A DNA stretch of 38,129 bases from a bacterium (GTDB lineage: Bacteria > Bacteroidota > Ignavibacteria > UBA10030). Below are positions 29,950 to 38,129 of this stretch, piece by piece; position 1 is the stretch's first letter, and the number at the start of each line of letters is the position of its first letter. A model generated the notes under the pieces. It ran no database searches and was not told the DNA's origin. It was given only the letters and a program-made list of their open reading frames with translations. The position numbers and the translations under genes were made by a program. The DNA lies in the NCBI GenBank assembly GCA_043803945.1, contig JAZDJN010000017.1, positions 1 to 38,129 on the forward strand. Reading direction: 5' to 3'.

Positions 29950-31197
29950 TTACCAGCGTCGTGGTGCGTCCTTAACGCAACGTACGGTATCGCGGGCAAT
30001 GAGCAATTCTTCATTTGTCGGGATAACATAGACTTTCACCCTGCTGCTTGGAAGGCTGATATCGCCCTCCTTGCCCGGGGTGAATGAATAATTAACTGCG
30101 TCATCGATCTCAATGCCGAGTCGCTCCAGGCCAGCACAAATACGCTGCCTGATTTGTGGAGAGTTTTCTCCAATACCTCCTGTGAAAATTATCGCATCGG
30201 CTCCCCCCATCTCTGCCAGATAGGCGCCAATATATTTCTTTGCTTTATGACAGAACATATCAATGGCAAGTTTGGCGCGGCGGTCCTGATGCTCCCGTTC
30301 TTCTTCAAGCAGATCGCGCATATCGTTTGTCAGTCCTGAAACACCCAGTAGTCCCGATTGCTTGTTCAGCAAACCATCAATGTCGCTGATGGACATCGCT
30401 TCTTTGTGCATCAGATATTCCATTGCACCCGGATCCAGATCACCGCCACGCGTCCCCATCATTAATCCCTCCAATGGAGTAAGTCCCATTGAAGTATCAA
30501 ATGAATATCCATTTTTAATTGCACATGCCGAGCAACCGTTGCCCAGATGCATGGTAATGACATTGGTGGAATCAACATCCCTGCCTGTCAATTGCCGGTA
30601 ACGATAGGAGACATAGCGGTGCGAGGTGCCATGAAATCCATACCGCCTGATCTTGTGGCGGCGGTAGAGCTGGTACGGGATGGCATAGAGATACGATGAT
30701 TCCGGCATGGTGGAGTGGAACGATGTATCAAACACGGCAACCAGGGGAACGCCGGCGCCAAAGAGATCGCGAGAAGCGTAAATACCTTTCAAGTTTGCCG
30801 GATTATGAAGCGGGGCTAGATCAATGCAATCTTCAATCCCGCGAATGACTTTCTCATCAATGACTATTGATCGGGTAAATTTCTCGGCGCCATGAACACA
30901 CCGGTGGCCTACAGCATGAATGTCTGCCAGCGATTGAATGCCGGTAATCTGTGCATCAGTGGAAATGATCCACCGCAGCACGTGATCCAATGCCGCGCGA
31001 TGGTCTTTCAAGGGTGAGGCTTGTTTCAGCGGTGTCCGCCCGGCTGCCTGATAGGTGATCGTAGCCTGACTGCCAATCCGCTCAATGAGGCCTTTGGCTT
31101 TCATCCTGTCAGCATTCTGTTCAATGAGGTCGAGATCAGTCTCGATGATCTGGAATTTTAGAGATGAGCTTCCGCAATTGAGGACGAGTATGTTCAT
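29950..31197 (-). CDS. ackA: Acetate kinase
   Basis: ILVLNCGSSSLKFQ, GHRCVHG, LAPLHNP, RYGFHGTSH, HLGNG, FTGGIGEN and IPTNEE. Confidence 0.97.
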   Translation of the reverse strand: MNILVLNCGSSSLKFQIIETDLDLIEQNADRMKAKGLIERIGSQATITYQAAGRTPLKQASPLKDHRAALDHVLRWIISTDAQITGIQSLADIHAVGHRCVHGAEKFTRSIVIDEKVIRGIEDCIDLAPLHNPANLKGIYASRDLFGAGVPLVAVFDTSFHSTMPESSYLYAIPYQLYRRHKIRRYGFHGTSHRYVSYRYRQLTGRDVDSTNVITMHLGNGCSACAIKNGYSFDTSMGLTPLEGLMMGTRGGDLDPGAMEYLMHKEAMSISDIDGLLNKQSGLLGVSGLTNDMRDLLEEEREHQDRRAKLAIDMFCHKAKKYIGAYLAEMGGADAIIFTGGIGENSPQIRQRICAGLERLGIEIDDAVNYSFTPGKEGDISLPSSRVKVYVIPTNEELLIARDTVRCVKDAPRRW

Positions 31198-31448
31198 GGC
31201 TAGTCTTGTCGTTCGTTATGATGATGGGGAAATAATCTTCTGTGCTTGTGTTCTGTTAACGTACTATTTTGTTGCTGGAAACTCAAGCTGCTGTATTTTG
31301 GTTTTCCCTTTTTTACGGTATCTTCTCAAGAATGAAACGCTGTCATCAACTCAGGCAAATGGAACGATGACGAAATATTATCAAAGTTGACACTAAGCAC
31401 AGGACCACGGGATTTTCCAGGAATTCACTGAACTATCCCTGCGAATCA

Positions 31449-32462
31449 ATGAAAAAATTCACCCTGAAACAACTTCCGACCGATCATCTTCATCTTGTTC
31501 ATCCACAGCAATTCAAGATTGACTACAAGAAAGAATTGAATCCGGCGCAGTATGAAGCTGTCACGTCGGTGAACGGTCCTCATCTGATTATCGCCGGAGC
31601 GGGAACAGGAAAAACTCGGACGGTTGTGTATCGTGTGGCCTATTTAGTTGAGCTGGGAATAAAGCCGGATTCCATATTACTCCTAACATTTACACGCAAG
31701 GCCGCCAATGAAATGATGCGCCGGGCCTCCATCGTGCTCGACAGCCGATGCGAACAAATCGCCGGCGGTACCTTTCATTCCTTTGCAAGCTCCATCCTGC
31801 GGAAGTACGCCAACCAACTCGGATTCGATCGCAATTATACAATTCTTGATCAGACCGACGCTGAAGACGTGATCAACCTTATCCGAACCCGAATGAAATT
31901 TGACACGAAGGAAAAGCGTTTTCCCAGAAAGGAAGCGCTCTATGATCTCTACAGCCGCTCGGTCAATACTCTCGTTTCAGTCAGGGAAATTCTGACGGTC
32001 GACTATCCGCATTACCTTGAACAGGAATCCGACATTCTTTCGGTCCATTCGATGTATGTGCAGTACAAGCGACAGCACAATCTCATGGACTACGACGACC
32101 TGCTTGTCCATCTTGCGTCGCTTCTGCAGCAGCATGAATCCATTCGCGCAACGCTCTCTCAACGCTATAAATATATCATGGTTGATGAATACCAGGATAC
32201 CAACAGCGTGCAGGCTAAGCTGGTGAAATTACTCGCCTACAAGCATCAGAATGTCATGGTCGTCGGAGACGATGCGCAATGTATTTATTCGTTTCGCGGT
32301 TCAACGATACGAAATATCCTTACATTCGAAAAAGTATTTCCAGGGTGTAGAGTGATTACGCTGGAGGAAAATTTCCGGAGTACGCAGCCGATCCTCAACC
32401 TGGCAAATGAGATTTTAAAACGGGCGTCGATTGAGCTGGTACATGATGGGGGTGAGAAGTGA
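31449..32462 (+). CDS. uvrD: UvrD/PcrA-family helicase, N-terminal half (domains 1A/1B), ending inside an insert
   Basis: LNPAQ, AGAGTGKT, LTFTRKAA, TFHS, VDEYQD, VGDDAQCIYSFRG and ENFRST, then LANEILKRA followed by an atypical tail SIELVHDGGEK*. Confidence 0.9.
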   Translation: MKKFTLKQLPTDHLHLVHPQQFKIDYKKELNPAQYEAVTSVNGPHLIIAGAGTGKTRTVVYRVAYLVELGIKPDSILLLTFTRKAANEMMRRASIVLDSRCEQIAGGTFHSFASSILRKYANQLGFDRNYTILDQTDAEDVINLIRTRMKFDTKEKRFPRKEALYDLYSRSVNTLVSVREILTVDYPHYLEQESDILSVHSMYVQYKRQHNLMDYDDLLVHLASLLQQHESIRATLSQRYKYIMVDEYQDTNSVQAKLVKLLAYKHQNVMVVGDDAQCIYSFRGSTIRNILTFEKVFPGCRVITLEENFRSTQPILNLANEILKRASIELVHDGGEK

Positions 32463-32698
32463 GAAGAGAGAAGTATGTAGAAGGTCGACGGTAAACAGAA
32501 GGCGGGAGAAAGAGAAGGGGAGAGTGAGAGCGTAAGAGGGTATGAGGGTAAGGTTGTATGAGAATTGATGAAAGGTGGTTGAGGATTTGAGATTGAAAGT
32601 GAAAATAAGAAAAACAGAGAAGAGGGAAAGGGTTCGAGATTCTATGGATGGAAAGCTACAATCAACAATCGAAAATCGTAAATCGGCAATCGCCAATG
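32427..32698. repeat. Purine-rich insert made of degenerate 7-mer and 8-mer tandem repeats
   Basis: 145 of 180 nt are purines in 32451-32630, with only 6 C. Units include GTGAGAA x2/GAGAGAA, the octamers AGAGTGAG/AGCGTAAG/AGGGTATG/AGGGTAAG, and AATCNNN x5 (32660-32694). Boundaries are approximate. Confidence 0.8.
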
Positions 32699-33718
32699 TA
32701 CTATAAGGAACTCTATACCAGGAAAACCGGTGGAAATCTGCCGCAGCTTGTATGCGCTGAAAACGAGAATATGCAGTCGCGGTTTGTTGTGCAGAAAATT
32801 CTCGAGCTGCGTGAACAGGGAATAGCTCTGGAAGAAATGGCGGTGTTGTTCCGATCCTCATTTCTCTCCTTCGATCTGGAAATTGAATTAACTAAAGCGA
32901 ATATCCCGTTTGTCAAGTTTGGCGGATTCAAGTTCATCGAAACGGCCCATGTAAAGGATATGATTGCCTACCTGCGTGTACTGGAAAATCCGTTGGATAT
33001 CGTTTCGTGGAATCGGATTCTCCTGCTGGTGGACGGAGTCGGGCCAAGGACCGCCGAAAAGATTATCCTCGATATTCAAAACAGGCGTATTCAAAGCCCG
33101 GGCGGCAATCGTGGAAATCCGCCCTCGACAAAATTCTGGATTCAATTCCAGGGCTATTCGGAGCATGTACAGAAACTCTTCTCGGTGCTTCACGATGTCG
33201 CTTCATCGACTGTACCGCCCGCTGAGAAAACCTATCAGGTTCTGAGCTACTATGAACCGATTCTTCGTGCACGGTATGATGATCATCAGAAGCGAAAAAA
33301 GGACCTGGAGATGTTTCAGAACATCTCCGAACGGTATAAGGATCTTGGCACTCTCCTGACCGATCTGGCGCTTGAACCGCCGAACGAAAGTATCGTGGAT
33401 GTGCAATCCCCGGGGCCGGAGAGAGAGTTCCTGACACTATCGACAATTCACAGTGCGAAAGGTCTCGAGTGGAATACTGTATTTGTGATCTACGCATTGG
33501 AAGGACGTTTTCCAGCGATGCGTGCAGTGGCAACCGCCGAAGATGTCGAAGAAGAACGACGCCTGATGTATGTCGCATGCACACGCGCCAAAGAGAACCT
33601 CGTCATCACCTATCCAATGAATATTTATGATCGCGAGTCAGGATTAATCCTGACAAAACCATCCCGCTTCATTGAGGGCATCGGGGAAAATCTTTTAGAG
33701 CCATGGGTGATAGAATAG
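32648..33718 (+). CDS. uvrD: UvrD/PcrA-family helicase, C-terminal half (domains 2A/2B)
   Basis: After a repeat-derived leader MESYNQQSKIVNRQSPM come YYKELYTRKTGG, AVLFRS, GVGPRT, LSTIHSAKGLEW, EEERRLMYVACTRAK and PSRFI. An alternative ATG is at 32696. Confidence 0.88.
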   Translation: MESYNQQSKIVNRQSPMYYKELYTRKTGGNLPQLVCAENENMQSRFVVQKILELREQGIALEEMAVLFRSSFLSFDLEIELTKANIPFVKFGGFKFIETAHVKDMIAYLRVLENPLDIVSWNRILLLVDGVGPRTAEKIILDIQNRRIQSPGGNRGNPPSTKFWIQFQGYSEHVQKLFSVLHDVASSTVPPAEKTYQVLSYYEPILRARYDDHQKRKKDLEMFQNISERYKDLGTLLTDLALEPPNESIVDVQSPGPEREFLTLSTIHSAKGLEWNTVFVIYALEGRFPAMRAVATAEDVEEERRLMYVACTRAKENLVITYPMNIYDRESGLILTKPSRFIEGIGENLLEPWVIE

Positions 33719-33730
33719 AAAGGAACGAGC

Positions 33731-33988
33731 TTGATCTCTCTTGATCGAAATGAAAATCTCTACGGCCCTGCACCGAAATGCTTCGAAGCATTGCAGAGCG
33801 TGGGAATTGAAGATCAGGTAAAGGAAGCTCTCCAGCAATTCTTAGAGCGGCGTGAAATGAGAATTAAGTTTTTCACAGAGCCGGAGTTCGCCGATTGTGT
33901 ACGCATTACGCTGGGCACAGAAGATCACAATCGAATGCTGCTTGCGGCGTTGTCCGATTTCTTTACTCCCGGGGATGGACGTTCATGA
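33731..33988 (+). pseudogene. In-frame internally deleted class I/II PLP aminotransferase (HisC/CobD-like)
   Basis: The N-terminal LDRNENLYGPAP is fused directly to the C-terminal DCVRITLGTEDHNRMLL. It is 85 aa against the usual ~350 and has no PLP-lysine region. Confidence 0.8.
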
Positions 33989-34746
33989 AGTGCATTATTC
34001 TTGCAGCAGGGGCTTCGAGGAGAATGCGCCCATTCACTGATGCCCAGCCGAAATGCTTATTGAAGATTGGCGGAACAACGCTCCTTGAACGGACTATCGA
34101 TAATGTTCTCGCAGCAGGTGTGGAAGAGTTCGGGATCGTTGTCGGGTACAGAAGAGAGCAGGTTCACCAATTTCTCAAGGAGAAATATCCGTTCCAGCGG
34201 ATTCGTTTCATCACGAATGCAAAATTCGAATCGACAAATAATGCCTATTCCCTTTTACTGGCCCGGGAATTTTATTTGAAAGATTTGACTGCGGATGGAT
34301 CGGGCCCGCCTTTACTCTTGCTCGACAGTGATATTCTCTTTCCCAAAGAATTGCTCTTTCCGCTCATCAAGGAGAGTAAAACGAGCTCGCTTGCGGTTCG
34401 CGTCGAAGGGGAGCATAACGATGAGGAGATTCGAGTGGCACTGAATCCCGGCGGAACGATCGCGGCCATTGGAAAGAATATTCCGCTTGCTCAATTCTAT
34501 GGAGAATCAATAGGCATAGAACTGTTTCACCCGAACGATGCACGTGCATTGTTTCAGGTTCTGGAACAACGAGTTCGAGCCGGGGTGGGAAGAACGGAAT
34601 TCTATGAAGCATCATTCCAGGTATTGATCGATCGTGGACACATGATAAAAGCGGTCGATGTCAGTGCCTTTAAGGCGATGGAAATTGATACTCCCAAAGA
34701 TTTCGAGGCAGCAAAGTCTCTCCTCGGTGTCAAAAACTATAAGTAA
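33985..34746 (+). CDS. NTP transferase, phosphocholine/inositol-phosphate cytidylyltransferase family
   Basis: MKCIILAAGASRRM, PKCLL, VVGY, TNNAYSL, LDSDI, GESIGI and EIDT..D. ATG 33985 overlaps the upstream TGA. Confidence 0.9.
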   Translation: MKCIILAAGASRRMRPFTDAQPKCLLKIGGTTLLERTIDNVLAAGVEEFGIVVGYRREQVHQFLKEKYPFQRIRFITNAKFESTNNAYSLLLAREFYLKDLTADGSGPPLLLLDSDILFPKELLFPLIKESKTSSLAVRVEGEHNDEEIRVALNPGGTIAAIGKNIPLAQFYGESIGIELFHPNDARALFQVLEQRVRAGVGRTEFYEASFQVLIDRGHMIKAVDVSAFKAMEIDTPKDFEAAKSLLGVKNYK

Positions 34747-34787
34747 ATGCTATAGTGAATTTGTGTAACCAGCGTAATCAGTGGTCC

Positions 34788-35648
34788 ATGGATTATAATT
34801 ACTCTACGACGGTCAAGTCCTCGCTTTCCGACGAGCTGATTAATACATACCTCCTCCGGCCAATCGCAGGGCTGGTGGTCAGAGCGTTGTATCACACTCC
34901 GGTGACACCAAACCAGGTGACATTGATTTCGACCTTCGTTGGCGTGGTGGCAGCAGCATTGTACTTTCCACGGGAAGCCTCCTGGACTGCAATAGCCGGT
35001 TTATGTGTGACAGTCAAGGACATTCTCGATTCGGCAGACGGGCAGCTTGCACGGGCGAAACAACAATACAGCAGGCGCGGGAGATTCCTTGACTCGATCG
35101 GTGACTTCCTCGTGAACGCGTGCCTTTTCGGAGTTTTTGGCTACATCCTGTTTCAGCAATTTCACACATTGGAAGTACTGGTACTGAGCTTGCTGGGATT
35201 TTGGGGAATCACGCTGCGTGTCTCCTACCATGTCTTCTATCAAGCTTTCTATCTTCATCTTGAAAAGAAGTATGAAGTGAACAGAGTAACAGAAACGATC
35301 ACCGACGAAGATCGGAAAGGGGATACCGTCACCTATTTGCTGCAACGGACATTCCAGTTCCTCTATGGCTGGCAGGACCGGTTGATGATTCGGGTTGATT
35401 ATTGGTGCAGAAGTGGATCAGATGCGTCGGAATATCTTCACGGATGGTACAGCAATCCAATCGGGCTGCGGCTCTCAGGTCTGATCGGGATCGGAACTGA
35501 ATTGTTTCTTCTGATGCTGTTTTCACTCTTCAATCAGATCAGGCTCTATTTGTATGTGAACCTCTTTCTTATGAATGGAATTCTTCTTATTTCTATACTG
35601 TATCGGAAGTTCTTCCTCCACAGATCACTTTTATCACGAGGTCAATAA
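34788..35648 (+). CDS. CDP-alcohol phosphatidyltransferase family protein
   Basis: TPNQVT and LDSADGQLAR....SRRGRFLDSIGD signature, with several TM segments. ATG 34788 is preferred because the upstream GTG extension is repeat-derived. Confidence 0.92.
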   Translation: MDYNYSTTVKSSLSDELINTYLLRPIAGLVVRALYHTPVTPNQVTLISTFVGVVAAALYFPREASWTAIAGLCVTVKDILDSADGQLARAKQQYSRRGRFLDSIGDFLVNACLFGVFGYILFQQFHTLEVLVLSLLGFWGITLRVSYHVFYQAFYLHLEKKYEVNRVTETITDEDRKGDTVTYLLQRTFQFLYGWQDRLMIRVDYWCRSGSDASEYLHGWYSNPIGLRLSGLIGIGTELFLLMLFSLFNQIRLYLYVNLFLMNGILLISILYRKFFLHRSLLSRGQ

Positions 35649-37996
35649 TGAGAAGGCACTTACTCTTGAGTCTCTTATTTATGTTACCAATCGCACTCAT
35701 CGCTCAACTTCCCGGTCCGAAGGAGAACAGAATGCTGCTTCCGAACGGTTGGTGGCTTTCTCCTGCAGGAGAACAATTGCCACTGGGTGACTTTCCGATG
35801 AATGCCGCTCTCCACGAGAGTCAGCGGTATCTGGCCGTTACACAGAGCGGCCAGTCGAAAGCTGAACTTCTGCTCGTCGATCTGAAGCTGAAAAAGGTTG
35901 TGCAGCAAATCCGGTTGAAGGATAGCTGGCTTGGAATAAAATTTGTTGGATCGAAATTGTATGTCTCAGGTGGATATCAAAACTGTATCTACACGTTTCA
36001 ACTGGCGAAGGGGCAATTGATAACCGGCGATACACTCTATTTCGTAGATCGCTCAAAAAAGTACTCGGGTGCCGTTGCGGGATTGGATATGAGCAAGAAC
36101 ACCCTGGCTGTCGTCTTTCGGGAAGACAGCACATTGCGCTTCTTCGATCTGAAGAAAAAGCAGCAGGAAATCGTCAAGCTGGAAGGAATGCCCTATACAT
36201 GCCTCTTTCTTAACGATGGTTCTCTTGCAGTTTCACTCTGGAGTTCAAAAAAAGTTCAGGTCTTCATGAAAAGGAAGATGCTTTATGAAGTGGCAACAGG
36301 AGATCATCCGAATGAGATCACACTCAGCAAGAACCAGCAGTTTGCCTATATTGCCTGTGCGAATGATAATACGGTGACTGTAATCGATCTCCGGAAGCAG
36401 AAAGCAGTCGCTTCAATTGTAACGGCAATTCATCCGGATGCGCCCGAGGGGTCAACGACGAATTCGGTCGCCTTGACGCCCGATCAGAACTATCTCATTG
36501 CCGCGAATGCCGACAACAACTCGCTTGCTGTCATCGGTGTAAAGAAACCAGCGGAATCAAAACCTCTCGGTTTCATTCCCGTCGGTTGGTACCCGACGAA
36601 AGTTCTCGTCCTGAAGAATAACACCATCCTGGTTCTTAACGGAAAAGGAGGACGATCATTCGCCAATCCTAAAGAAGAGTATATCGGCAGCCTGATGGTG
36701 GGCTCGCTTTCTATAATTCCTATGCCGAGCGAGAAAAAGCTGGCACAGTATTCACAACAGGTTCTGAGCAATACACCGTACAAACATTCGGAGTTGCTGG
36801 AGCTGGCTTATAAGGGAGAAAACGCTATCCCGCGAAAGGTCGGCAATCCTTCTCCCATTAAATATGTCTTCTATATCATCAAAGAGAACCGGACGTACGA
36901 TCAGGTGTTCGGTGACATGCCGCAGGGCAACGGCGATACCTCACTTTGCCTGTTCGGAGAGGAAGTCAGCCCCAATCATCATAAGCTTGCCCGCGAGTTC
37001 GTGCTGATGGATAATTTTTACGTGAATGCAGAGGTCAGTGCAGATGGACATAACTGGTCTGTTGGCGGCTATGCCACGGACTTTATTGAAAAAACATGGC
37101 CGCCCCATTATGGCGGGCGGGGAGGGGAATATGTTTTTGAAGGAACGGAGCGTACCGGAAAACCCACGGCAGGCTACATCTGGAGTATGTGCAATAACAA
37201 GGGGGTGAGCTTCCGTTTGTATGGAGAGTATATCGATCCGGAGGAGAAAGACTCGCCGGCGAAACCACGCGATGCTGACGTTGGCAATAATTTTTCAAAA
37301 ACGTATCGCGGCTGGGATCTCGACTATTCCGATATCGAGCGGTATAAAGCGTGGGAGAAGGAGTTTACAGAATTCGAACGCACCGGGTCGCTCCCAAAAC
37401 TGAACATTCTCCATCTTCCCAATGACCATACCGCCGGTACGAAAAAAGGTGCATTGACCCCCAAAGCGTATGTTGCACAGAACGATTATGCTCTTGGACT
37501 GATTGTCGATCGGATCAGCCGCAGTCCGTTCTGGAAGGAAACCGCAATTTTCGTTGTCGAGGACGATGCACAGAATGGGCCTGACCATGTCGACGCACAC
37601 CGCTCAACAGCTCTTGTTATCTCTCCCTACATTAAACGAAACTCTGTCGATCATACACTCTACAGCACCACTTCGATGCTGCGAACGATGGAGTTGATCC
37701 TTGGATTGCCACCGATGAGCCAATTTGATGCAGCCGCCATACCGATGTATAATGCGTTCACGACAACGGCTGATCTCACACCGTATTCCGTCGAGCAGCC
37801 GCGTCACGACCTGAATGAAAAAAATCCCGACGGGAGTTATGGACAGGATCTCATGGAGAGAATGAATTTACGAAAGGTGGACGCCGCTCCAGATCGCTTG
37901 TTCAGTGAGATTATCTGGCGTGCAGTTAAAGGGACACCAATGCCCCCGCCGAAGTATTCGATCTTTTCCTTTGGTGCCGAAGAGGAGGATGAGTAG
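35648..37996 (+). CDS. Secreted YncE/YVTN beta-propeller + alkaline-phosphatase-superfamily phosphoesterase
   Basis: Signal peptide, LPNGW.LSPAG, ANADNN, GFIPVGWYPT, IKYVFYIIKENRTYDQV, SADGH, NDHT and EDDAQNGPDHVDAHRS. Confidence 0.92.
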   Translation: MRRHLLLSLLFMLPIALIAQLPGPKENRMLLPNGWWLSPAGEQLPLGDFPMNAALHESQRYLAVTQSGQSKAELLLVDLKLKKVVQQIRLKDSWLGIKFVGSKLYVSGGYQNCIYTFQLAKGQLITGDTLYFVDRSKKYSGAVAGLDMSKNTLAVVFREDSTLRFFDLKKKQQEIVKLEGMPYTCLFLNDGSLAVSLWSSKKVQVFMKRKMLYEVATGDHPNEITLSKNQQFAYIACANDNTVTVIDLRKQKAVASIVTAIHPDAPEGSTTNSVALTPDQNYLIAANADNNSLAVIGVKKPAESKPLGFIPVGWYPTKVLVLKNNTILVLNGKGGRSFANPKEEYIGSLMVGSLSIIPMPSEKKLAQYSQQVLSNTPYKHSELLELAYKGENAIPRKVGNPSPIKYVFYIIKENRTYDQVFGDMPQGNGDTSLCLFGEEVSPNHHKLAREFVLMDNFYVNAEVSADGHNWSVGGYATDFIEKTWPPHYGGRGGEYVFEGTERTGKPTAGYIWSMCNNKGVSFRLYGEYIDPEEKDSPAKPRDADVGNNFSKTYRGWDLDYSDIERYKAWEKEFTEFERTGSLPKLNILHLPNDHTAGTKKGALTPKAYVAQNDYALGLIVDRISRSPFWKETAIFVVEDDAQNGPDHVDAHRSTALVISPYIKRNSVDHTLYSTTSMLRTMELILGLPPMSQFDAAAIPMYNAFTTTADLTPYSVEQPRHDLNEKNPDGSYGQDLMERMNLRKVDAAPDRLFSEIIWRAVKGTPMPPPKYSIFSFGAEEEDE

Positions 37997-37998
37997 AG

Positions 37999-38129
37999 AT
38001 TTATTAACATGGATAGACAGGATGGACAGGATTATTTTAGATAGGGTTGGTAAGAATAATATCCTATTTATCCTGTAAATCGATGTCTACATATTTATTA
38101 ACATGGATAGACAGGATGGACAGGATTAT
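37999..38129. repeat. 37-bp direct repeat (period 94) whose spacer holds the inverted complement; 9-mer-based hairpin unit cut by the window end
   Basis: ATTTATTAACATGGATAGACAGGATGGACAGGATTAT occurs at 37999-38035 and 38093-38129. Segment 38007-38036 pairs imperfectly with 38055-38086. Confidence 0.85.

Follow-up and report, generated by a model that had tools for sequence, protein, structure and literature searches.

A UvrD/PcrA-like helicase of Ignavibacteriales encoded as two genes cut between its motor domains, probably a two-subunit enzyme that arose by gene fission

The superfamily 1A (SF1A) helicases of known structure PcrA, UvrD and Rep (1PJR/3PJR, 2IS1-2IS6 and 1UAA, respectively) combine the fold families PF00580 and PF13361 and carry all of their motor motifs on one polypeptide. 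Nucleic-acid motor enzymes that are encoded as two subunits have been described in archaea, where the reverse gyrases of Nanoarchaeum equitans and Methanopyrus kandleri are naturally split and their subunits associate into an active heterodimer; the cut in these superfamily 2 (SF2) enzymes either separates the helicase module from the topoisomerase module or falls within the topoisomerase domain, and does not part the two RecA-like lobes of the motor (PMC4117796). Among the titles and abstract openings surveyed, there was no UvrD-family helicase split between domains 1A and 2A, in Ignavibacteria or elsewhere, and no natural helicase motor cut between its two RecA-like lobes; one report that mentions UvrD uses it only as a tree marker (PMC9318685). 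Here we describe a helicase of the same fold families, with the full set of motor motifs, in a stretch of 38,129 nucleotides (positions 1 to 38,129 of contig JAZDJN010000017.1, assembly GCA_043803945.1; Bacteroidota, Ignavibacteria, UBA10030), hereafter the window. In contrast to PcrA, UvrD and Rep, this helicase is made as two polypeptides, cut at the 1A/2A junction; the two genes that encode them are both conserved and have separate stop and start codons. We consider it likely (probability about 0.86) that an ancient gene fission has given a two-subunit helicase in which the ATP site is formed between the subunits. The locus is arranged as follows:

31449-32462, + strand: N-terminal helicase subunit gene, 337 residues plus TGA (open reading frame (ORF) list, PF00580, PcrA alignment).
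32463-32695, + strand: intergenic spacer, 233 bases, 74% purine, with degenerate 7-8 base tandem arrays (composition, Rfam, fold).
32696-33718, + strand: C-terminal helicase subunit gene, 340 residues plus stop, start MYYKELYT (ORF list, PF13361, PcrA alignment).

The original prediction, made from the letters of the window, was that a UvrD/PcrA-type helicase is divided at its 1A/2A linker into two halves lying in different frames; its coordinates and codons all proved correct when the sequence was rechecked, and Pfam and the PcrA alignment agree on the position of the cut. The first ORF terminates with GAG AAG TGA (32454-32462, stop at 32460-32462), behind a non-conserved tail, SIELVHDGGEK. 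The second, offset by 2 with respect to the first, is open from an ATG at 32648 and has a further in-frame ATG at 32696 (ATG TAC TAT AAG, 32696-32707). The stop at 32460-32462 and the separate start at 32696 mean that the motor core is not on one polypeptide. PF00580 was found in the N half (E 5.8e-78) and PF13361 (UvrD_C) in the C half (E 6.7e-48). Among solved structures, PcrA was the best match in the Protein Data Bank for both halves (E 3e-58 and 1.3e-33 for N and C, respectively); the N half is collinear with PcrA residues 11-301 and the C half with residues 312-647, which places the cut at the junction between motor domains 1A and 2A. The names used here for the helicase motifs, and the 1A/2A boundaries within PcrA, are those that we take to be the accepted ones. 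The N half thus contains domain 1A with its insert domain 1B, and carries Walker A (GAGTGKT), DEYQD and GDDAQCIYSFRG, and the C half contains domain 2A with insert 2B, and carries LFRS, TIHSAKGLEW and RRLMYVACTRAKENL. A hypothetical join of AAG to TAC would give 337 + 339 = 676 residues, the length initially proposed, and the linker consensus xEKYxKxLxT given in that prediction for such helicases is matched by uninterrupted orthologues, which read ..RAKEKYTKVLYT.. where the window has a stop, a spacer and a start.

Motor motifs I to VI are all present, as are the domains expected of a UvrD/PcrA/Rep-type SF1A helicase, and the initial statement that both halves keep their motifs is borne out by 16 diverse split orthologues, in which G50-T56 (GAGTGKT), D246-D250 (DEYQD) and G273-G284 (motif III) of the N half, and F52-S54 (LFRS), T250-E258 (TIHSAKGLEW) and Y292-A298 (YVACTRA) of the C half, are invariant. 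The NCBIfam equivalogs TIGR01073, TIGR01075 and TIGR01074 gave at best 284.1 bits for the N half and 163 bits for the C half and did not reach their cut-offs of 911-1144 bits; even the sum of the N and C scores remains below the PcrA equivalog cut-off of 911 bits. Because the scores lie below these cut-offs and a canonical UvrD/PcrA-like gene is present elsewhere in the same genome (contig C33, a frame of approximately 790 residues, 39% identity), the split helicase is, as judged by homology, a distinct UvrD-family paralogue, to which homology assigns no cellular role.

In a first six-frame search of 40 relatives, the orthologue ended at the same place in nearly all. An N-half orthologue was then found at E<=1e-110 in 184 of the 277 genomes of the window's order. 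This search listed 150 orthologue places, with 35 further places beyond them; among the matches listed, the same cut was found in 148 of 150, and a frame spanning both halves (669 residues) was seen only in G027 and G035, both of family f4 (G, C, L and f denote our labels for genomes, contigs, loci and families). The other long frames, in G134 (619 residues), G197 (640), G097 (566) and also G186 (495), were opened, and each has a stop after the N half, with the C half following in another frame or after another gene. The uninterrupted f4 orthologues (L026 and L027) are 669 amino acids long and 70-71% identical to the N half. In a class-wide sample, 158 of 251 genomes matched at E<=1e-95. In the other orders, the orthologue shares 50-61% identity with the N half and is a single chain of about 660-740 residues, in a frame that mostly measures 657-790; five places show shorter frames (448-585 residues) and one more runs off a contig end. 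All seven genomes of family f19, which belongs to a sister order, also matched (62-65% identity), and here the gene is cut as well. The uninterrupted forms of f4 and of the other orders belong to the same orthologous group as the window helicase, but are single chains.

Selection was compared between the halves, as had been suggested at the outset, in 11 close pairs (amino acid identity 0.90-0.99). The ratio of nonsynonymous to synonymous substitution rates (dN/dS) ranged from 0.014 to 0.046 in the N half and from 0.012 to 0.079 in the C half, indicating strong purifying selection on both. Between the window and its nearest relatives, synonymous sites are saturated, the proportion of synonymous differences being 0.78-0.84 and that of nonsynonymous differences 0.11-0.14. 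These values bear on the idea that the window holds a dead helicase gene interrupted by junk, through a recent knockout or an assembly error. Such an idea can draw on the sequencing runs: the only two public DNA runs that share words with the window (5-6%) gave 0 contigs at a likeness of at least 99% and almost no cover of 32441-32657, and thus no confirmation of the 233 bases. A dead gene does not fit with dN/dS values of 0.012-0.079 in both halves across an order, with motif residues that are all intact, or with a cut that, being shared by 148 of the 150 listed places, is not private to one strain. Knockout or misassembly as the cause of the split itself is refuted, the exact sequence of the spacer rests on the assembly, and we attach next to no probability to this explanation.

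The junction between the halves was then compared in 100 loci. Nine were dropped, as one half was missing or partial at the locus end (L013, L040, L048, L062, L063, L065, L071, L097 and L106), which left 91, 2 of them intact and 89 split; the latter collapse into 77 distinct junctions. Measured from stop to start, the halves overlap by one base (ATGA, distance -1) in 6 of these, lie 0-30 bases apart in 14, 31-500 apart in 33 and more than 500 apart, up to 1244, in 24. All three stop codons are used, and the three frame offsets occur in 32, 31 and 26 of the 89 loci. N-half residues beyond ..ANEILKR.. are not conserved, and the spacers of the relatives have no common sequence. A start codon, in turn, lies at the position equivalent to 32696, or up to 5 codons upstream, in 75 of the 77 junctions (ATG in 67, GTG in 5 and TTG in 3); the C half opens with M-YYKELYT in the window's family and with M(x)RHKY[ST]K in others. 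An intein or split intein is at odds with this anatomy: Pfam finds only helicase domains in the two halves, the N-half tails of relatives consist of 2-30 non-conserved residues, and the C half opens directly with conserved helicase residues. Variable inserts at the same site, which the original prediction had proposed to look for in related genomes, are present in the form of these spacers, which differ in both length and sequence. A functional two-subunit helicase restarting at an ATG, which was one of its candidates, is strongly supported as regards the conserved start at 32696; the other start that it named, at 32648, sits within a repeat array and is not conserved.

In some genomes, the halves are not neighbours. 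Eight loci with gaps of 782-1244 bases were opened (L083, L090, L075, L059, L086, L099, L064 and L066), and a whole same-strand ORF fills each gap; that of L059 encodes a homocysteine S-methyltransferase (PF02574, E 3e-59) and that of L083 is lipoprotein-like, with no Pfam family. In G039, 13.8 kb of the same contig separate the halves, and they lie on different contigs in G215, G216, G218 and G175, as well as in 5/5 genomes of family f19, where the N-half contig of G286 continues for more than 20 kb past the gene with no C half. Halves that are separated by genes or unlinked cannot be rejoined by bypassing, splicing or excision, and must therefore be separate genes.

With regard to translational bypassing, the window resembles a known example in one respect. 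In T4 gene 60, the codon before the stop recurs downstream, across a gap of 50 bases. In the window, the codon before the stop also recurs downstream in the other frame, so that hopping or frameshifting from a take-off AAG (32457-32459, followed directly by TGA, 32460-32462) to an in-frame landing AAG (32705-32707) would yield a fused single chain, and an 8-base pairing between TGGTACAT (32437-32444) and ATGTACTA (32696-32703) could bring the gap ends together. This pairing, pointed out in the original prediction, is possible, with one G-U pair, but is at chance level and is not used in the minimum-energy fold; a matching single codon is also expected by chance. The window gap, of 233 bases, is neither conserved nor structured: folding of a 281-base stretch gave a z score of +0.17, with 115 of 200 shuffles folding at least as well. 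Among the relatives, the gap varies from -1 to 1244 bases with unconserved sequence and every frame offset, contains whole genes or is replaced by a lack of linkage, the N-half tail ahead of the stop is not conserved, and the C-half start codon, for which bypassing has no need, is. We thus regard bypassing as very improbable.

The spacer itself differs strongly in composition from the genome. It had been described as a non-coding insert with almost no C, and indeed, of the 239 bases from stop to start, 19 are C and 74% are purines, far off the genome-wide mean (0.495, standard deviation 0.051, in 200-base windows). The description as a non-coding insert is better replaced by that of an intergenic spacer between two genes. 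Tandem Repeats Finder reported three arrays:

32452-32474, + strand: GTGAGAA, 3.3 copies, 5' side of the spacer.
32527-32552, + strand: AGAGGGTA, 3.2 copies, 5' side of the spacer.
32658-32697, + strand: ACAATCG heptamer array, 5.7 copies, abutting the C-half start codon.

The arrays on the 5' side (32452-32552) belong to a GTRAGAG type also seen in other intergenic tracts of the genome. Six weak matches to the spacer were found elsewhere in the genome (79-86% over 35-68 bases), and an nhmmer search of the spacer against its own genome returned only the spacer itself, which indicates a compositional repeat class and not a conserved element. Period-7 CAATCGN arrays (AATCG core) of at least 3 copies number 141 in the genome versus 24 in the reversed-genome control; of these 141, only 23 have, no more than 40 bases downstream, an ATG with an open frame of at least 80 codons. 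A census of GAGAG-core arrays gave 101 versus 101 in a control that is invalid, since GAGAG reads the same reversed, and one of TAAGAG arrays showed no excess (4 versus 7 in the control). The genome holds 44 tracts of 200-550 bases with at least 72% purine or pyrimidine, and 27 of 43 inspected have no long open frame and consist mostly of degenerate GTRAGAG or GGGAATG repeats of 7-8 bases. As similar arrays occur genome-wide, the spacer is a local copy of a repeat-rich intergenic class, not an element tied to the helicase, and is without a function specific to it.

We note that CAATCGN arrays also directly abut start codons at C19:23667, C48:8093 (minus strand) and C51:25464 (minus strand), and that the skewed tracts are often followed by NCGATTG arrays and often start near the stop codon of the upstream gene (for example C19:13050-13450, C12:32905-33166, C117:13950-14300, C42:32713-32949 and C114:26489-26747). 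The closest parallel in print is a set of intergenic repeats of the heptamer TAACTGA, which in Beggiatoaceae, Cyanobacteria and some Bacteroidetes sit immediately before start codons; they resemble the 5.7-copy array of the window in their position at a start codon and differ from it in their unit, which in the window is CAATCGN, and no role is shown for either (PMC4679880).

A further candidate was removal of the spacer, either from the RNA, as an intron or intervening sequence, or from the DNA, by developmental excision. Features that could be taken in its favour come from relatives. In locus L009 (positions 1018-1488, genome G018), the 465-base spacer holds a gene for a 23S rRNA intervening-sequence (IVS) protein (PF05635, E 2.3e-34) flanked by inverted CAGAATN heptamer arrays, so that the spacer can fold along its entire length into one long hairpin (z -3.1); from its sequence, this cassette looks like a small mobile or IVS-like element that landed between the helicase genes. 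In addition, among 32 distinct spacers of relatives with lengths of 40-500 bases, 18 are more stably folded than their dinucleotide-shuffled versions (z below -2, down to -7.0); those that fold well (for example L067, L047, L042, L045 and L046) share no common sequence. Such folding may reflect ordinary terminators or palindromic or other repeats. The window spacer, in the same set, has a z of -0.16 and is thus not structured above chance, and a scan of 31000-34500 on both strands gave no Rfam match at E<=1, intron families included. Neither a recombinase nor a conserved boundary is present, the spacers of one genus bear no relation to those of another, and halves that are unlinked or enclose unrelated genes cannot be rejoined. 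Removal at the RNA or DNA level accordingly appears exceedingly improbable. The original prediction held that its candidates could not be told apart from the sequence alone; the comparative data do separate them, and favour the two-subunit reading.

The two halves were also compared for co-retention. The C half was found in 175 of the 277 genomes of the order, versus 184 for the N half, and the tallies by family run in parallel:

Family f1: N half in 75/85 genomes, C half in 74/85.
Family f2: N half in 7/11, C half in 8/11.
Family f3: N half in 3/3, C half in 3/3.
Family f4: N half in 2/3, C half in 2/3.
Family f5: N half in 37/44, C half in 32/44.
Family f6: N half in 0/4, C half in 0/4.
Family f7: N half in 16/55, C half in 16/55.
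Family f8: N half in 43/68, C half in 39/68.
Family f9: N half in 0/3, C half in 0/3.

By count alone, each half is present in 144 of 210 high-quality genomes. Structure prediction was employed to address association of the halves. The pair scored 0.76 versus 0.01 for the best of 3 controls, above a mark that 116 of 157 solved complexes, but also 2 of 215 mismatched pairs, had attained; between runs, at least 92% of contacts were in common, with a pLDDT (predicted local distance difference test) of at least 81 for the partner. The predicted interface brings N-half residues 48-53 and 275-281 (the Walker A and motif III regions) and 304-323 together with C-half residues 1-16 and 288-300.

It could nevertheless be argued that both halves are functional but no longer form one helicase, having taken up separate roles with other partners, or as a stand-alone DNA-binding or regulatory protein. 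The halves are indeed unlinked in f19 (5/5 genomes) and in several f8 genomes, and their presence lists are not identical (184 versus 175). However, family-level presence and absence track closely, dN/dS is equally low in both halves, and the residues of the composite ATP site are invariant in both (Walker A and B in N, motifs V and VI in C). Moreover, the ATGA overlap seen in 6 of 77 junctions is typical of coupled translation of partner subunits, and the pair passes the binding prediction, with the caveat on remembered structures given below. Separate roles are thus quite improbable, if somewhat less so than the other alternatives.

Taken together, the data point to a two-subunit helicase, for which the conservation, the dN/dS values and the parallel family tallies are observed, and the association of the halves comes from the prediction (0.76). 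An ancestor of Ignavibacteriales would have cut an SF1A helicase of approximately 670 residues, of UvrD/PcrA type, at the linker between its RecA-like domains. The N subunit (1A/1B) would supply the Walker A, Walker B and motif III residues and the C subunit (2A/2B) motifs IV to VI, and non-covalent binding of the two polypeptides would create the ATP site and the DNA track where 1A meets 2A, as in a single-chain helicase. In the window, the two genes are most likely co-transcribed, with the C subunit started independently at ATG 32696. No + strand terminator-like site was found between the halves of the window, which makes co-transcription plausible. A sigma-70 scan gave 5 promoter-like sites versus 3.1 expected, one of them in the spacer (32634-32662, 9/12 matches), and is uninformative. 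The motif TAnnTTTG, which we take to be the consensus of the Bacteroidota-type -7 element, occurred in 1 of 30 relatives' spacers versus 1.55 expected, and not in the window spacer.

Several observations weigh against this reading. Since single-chain PcrA and UvrD structures have been solved, the pass in the binding prediction may be a memory of the fold; as a model output it shows likeness to the single-chain structures, not binding, and the association of the halves is what we infer from it. Neither a promoter nor a Shine-Dalgarno sequence nor a -7 motif of the Bacteroidota type precedes the C half, so sequence signals leave its initiation, 233 bases downstream, unexplained, and among public sequencing runs there was no RNA run containing the window sequence or its organism. 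In two of the 77 junctions (L064 and L095), an ATG, GTG or TTG near the expected C-half start is absent, and the presence lists of the two halves differ for some genomes, mostly through fragmented or contig-end genes. Lastly, the best tree places the two intact f4 genes among the split forms (support 87).

This tree, a quick maximum-likelihood one, was calculated from N and C halves concatenated into 77 distinct proteins. In 48 of these the halves are adjacent and in 23 a gene separates them; the others are 2 unlinked pairs from f19, 2 intact proteins from f4 and 2, likewise intact, from the outgroup. All sequences of the order form, together with f19, one clade with a support of 100. A tree that keeps the 73 split forms together is 0.04 log-likelihood units worse (approximately unbiased (AU) test, p 0.49), and thus a single fission, with f4 keeping the ancestral state, is not rejected by the protein tree. 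On the other hand, f19 lies in another order and f4 in the window's order, and the history may therefore comprise one fission, several that hit the same linker, or a re-fusion.

Additional features were seen in the window and in one relative. An 85-residue ORF (33731-33988, + strand) lies directly after the C half; its head resembles the start of a histidinol-phosphate-type aminotransferase, and its tail gives a weak match to the final 50 positions of hisC (TIGR01141, E 3e-05, 23 bits versus a cut-off of 277). The ORF is probably what is left of an aminotransferase gene after an internal deletion. Downstream, at 33895-35648, follow an ORF of nucleotidyltransferase type and a membrane ORF. The end of the window carries two arrays of the 9-mer GGATAGACA, of 2.4 copies each (38011-38032 and 38105-38126), 94 bases apart. 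On contig C31 of G020, two whole split-helicase loci with identical scores, 35573-37761 (+) and 87566-89754 (-), are inverted with respect to each other approximately 50 kb apart, and represent either a large inverted duplication or an assembly artefact.

The split orthologues make up an unusually complete fission series, from overlapping genes to a spacer, a gene between the halves, a distance of kilobases and, finally, unlinked genes, with an uninterrupted form that survives or was regained in one family. A bolder proposal, which is tentative and which we hold to be unlikely as a whole, is that the SF1A helicase of Ignavibacteriales is an obligate heterodimer, with no ATP site until its two separately encoded subunits, unlinked in some lineages, come together, and that the spacers tune the ratio of C to N subunit. 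If this were true, helicase activity would be set by the supply of each subunit, and would be tuned by lineage-specific spacers, with heptamer arrays at the start codon in the window and, elsewhere, hairpins or a gene for a 23S IVS protein. For annotation, the two-subunit reading implies that two 'partial helicase' genes in Ignavibacteriales are to be treated as one enzyme, and not as recoding or a pseudogene. The locus would also offer a natural motor, kept by evolution and cut exactly between the RecA-like domains, as a tool for studying how 1A and 2A assemble the ATP site and the DNA track, and could guide the design of split helicases.

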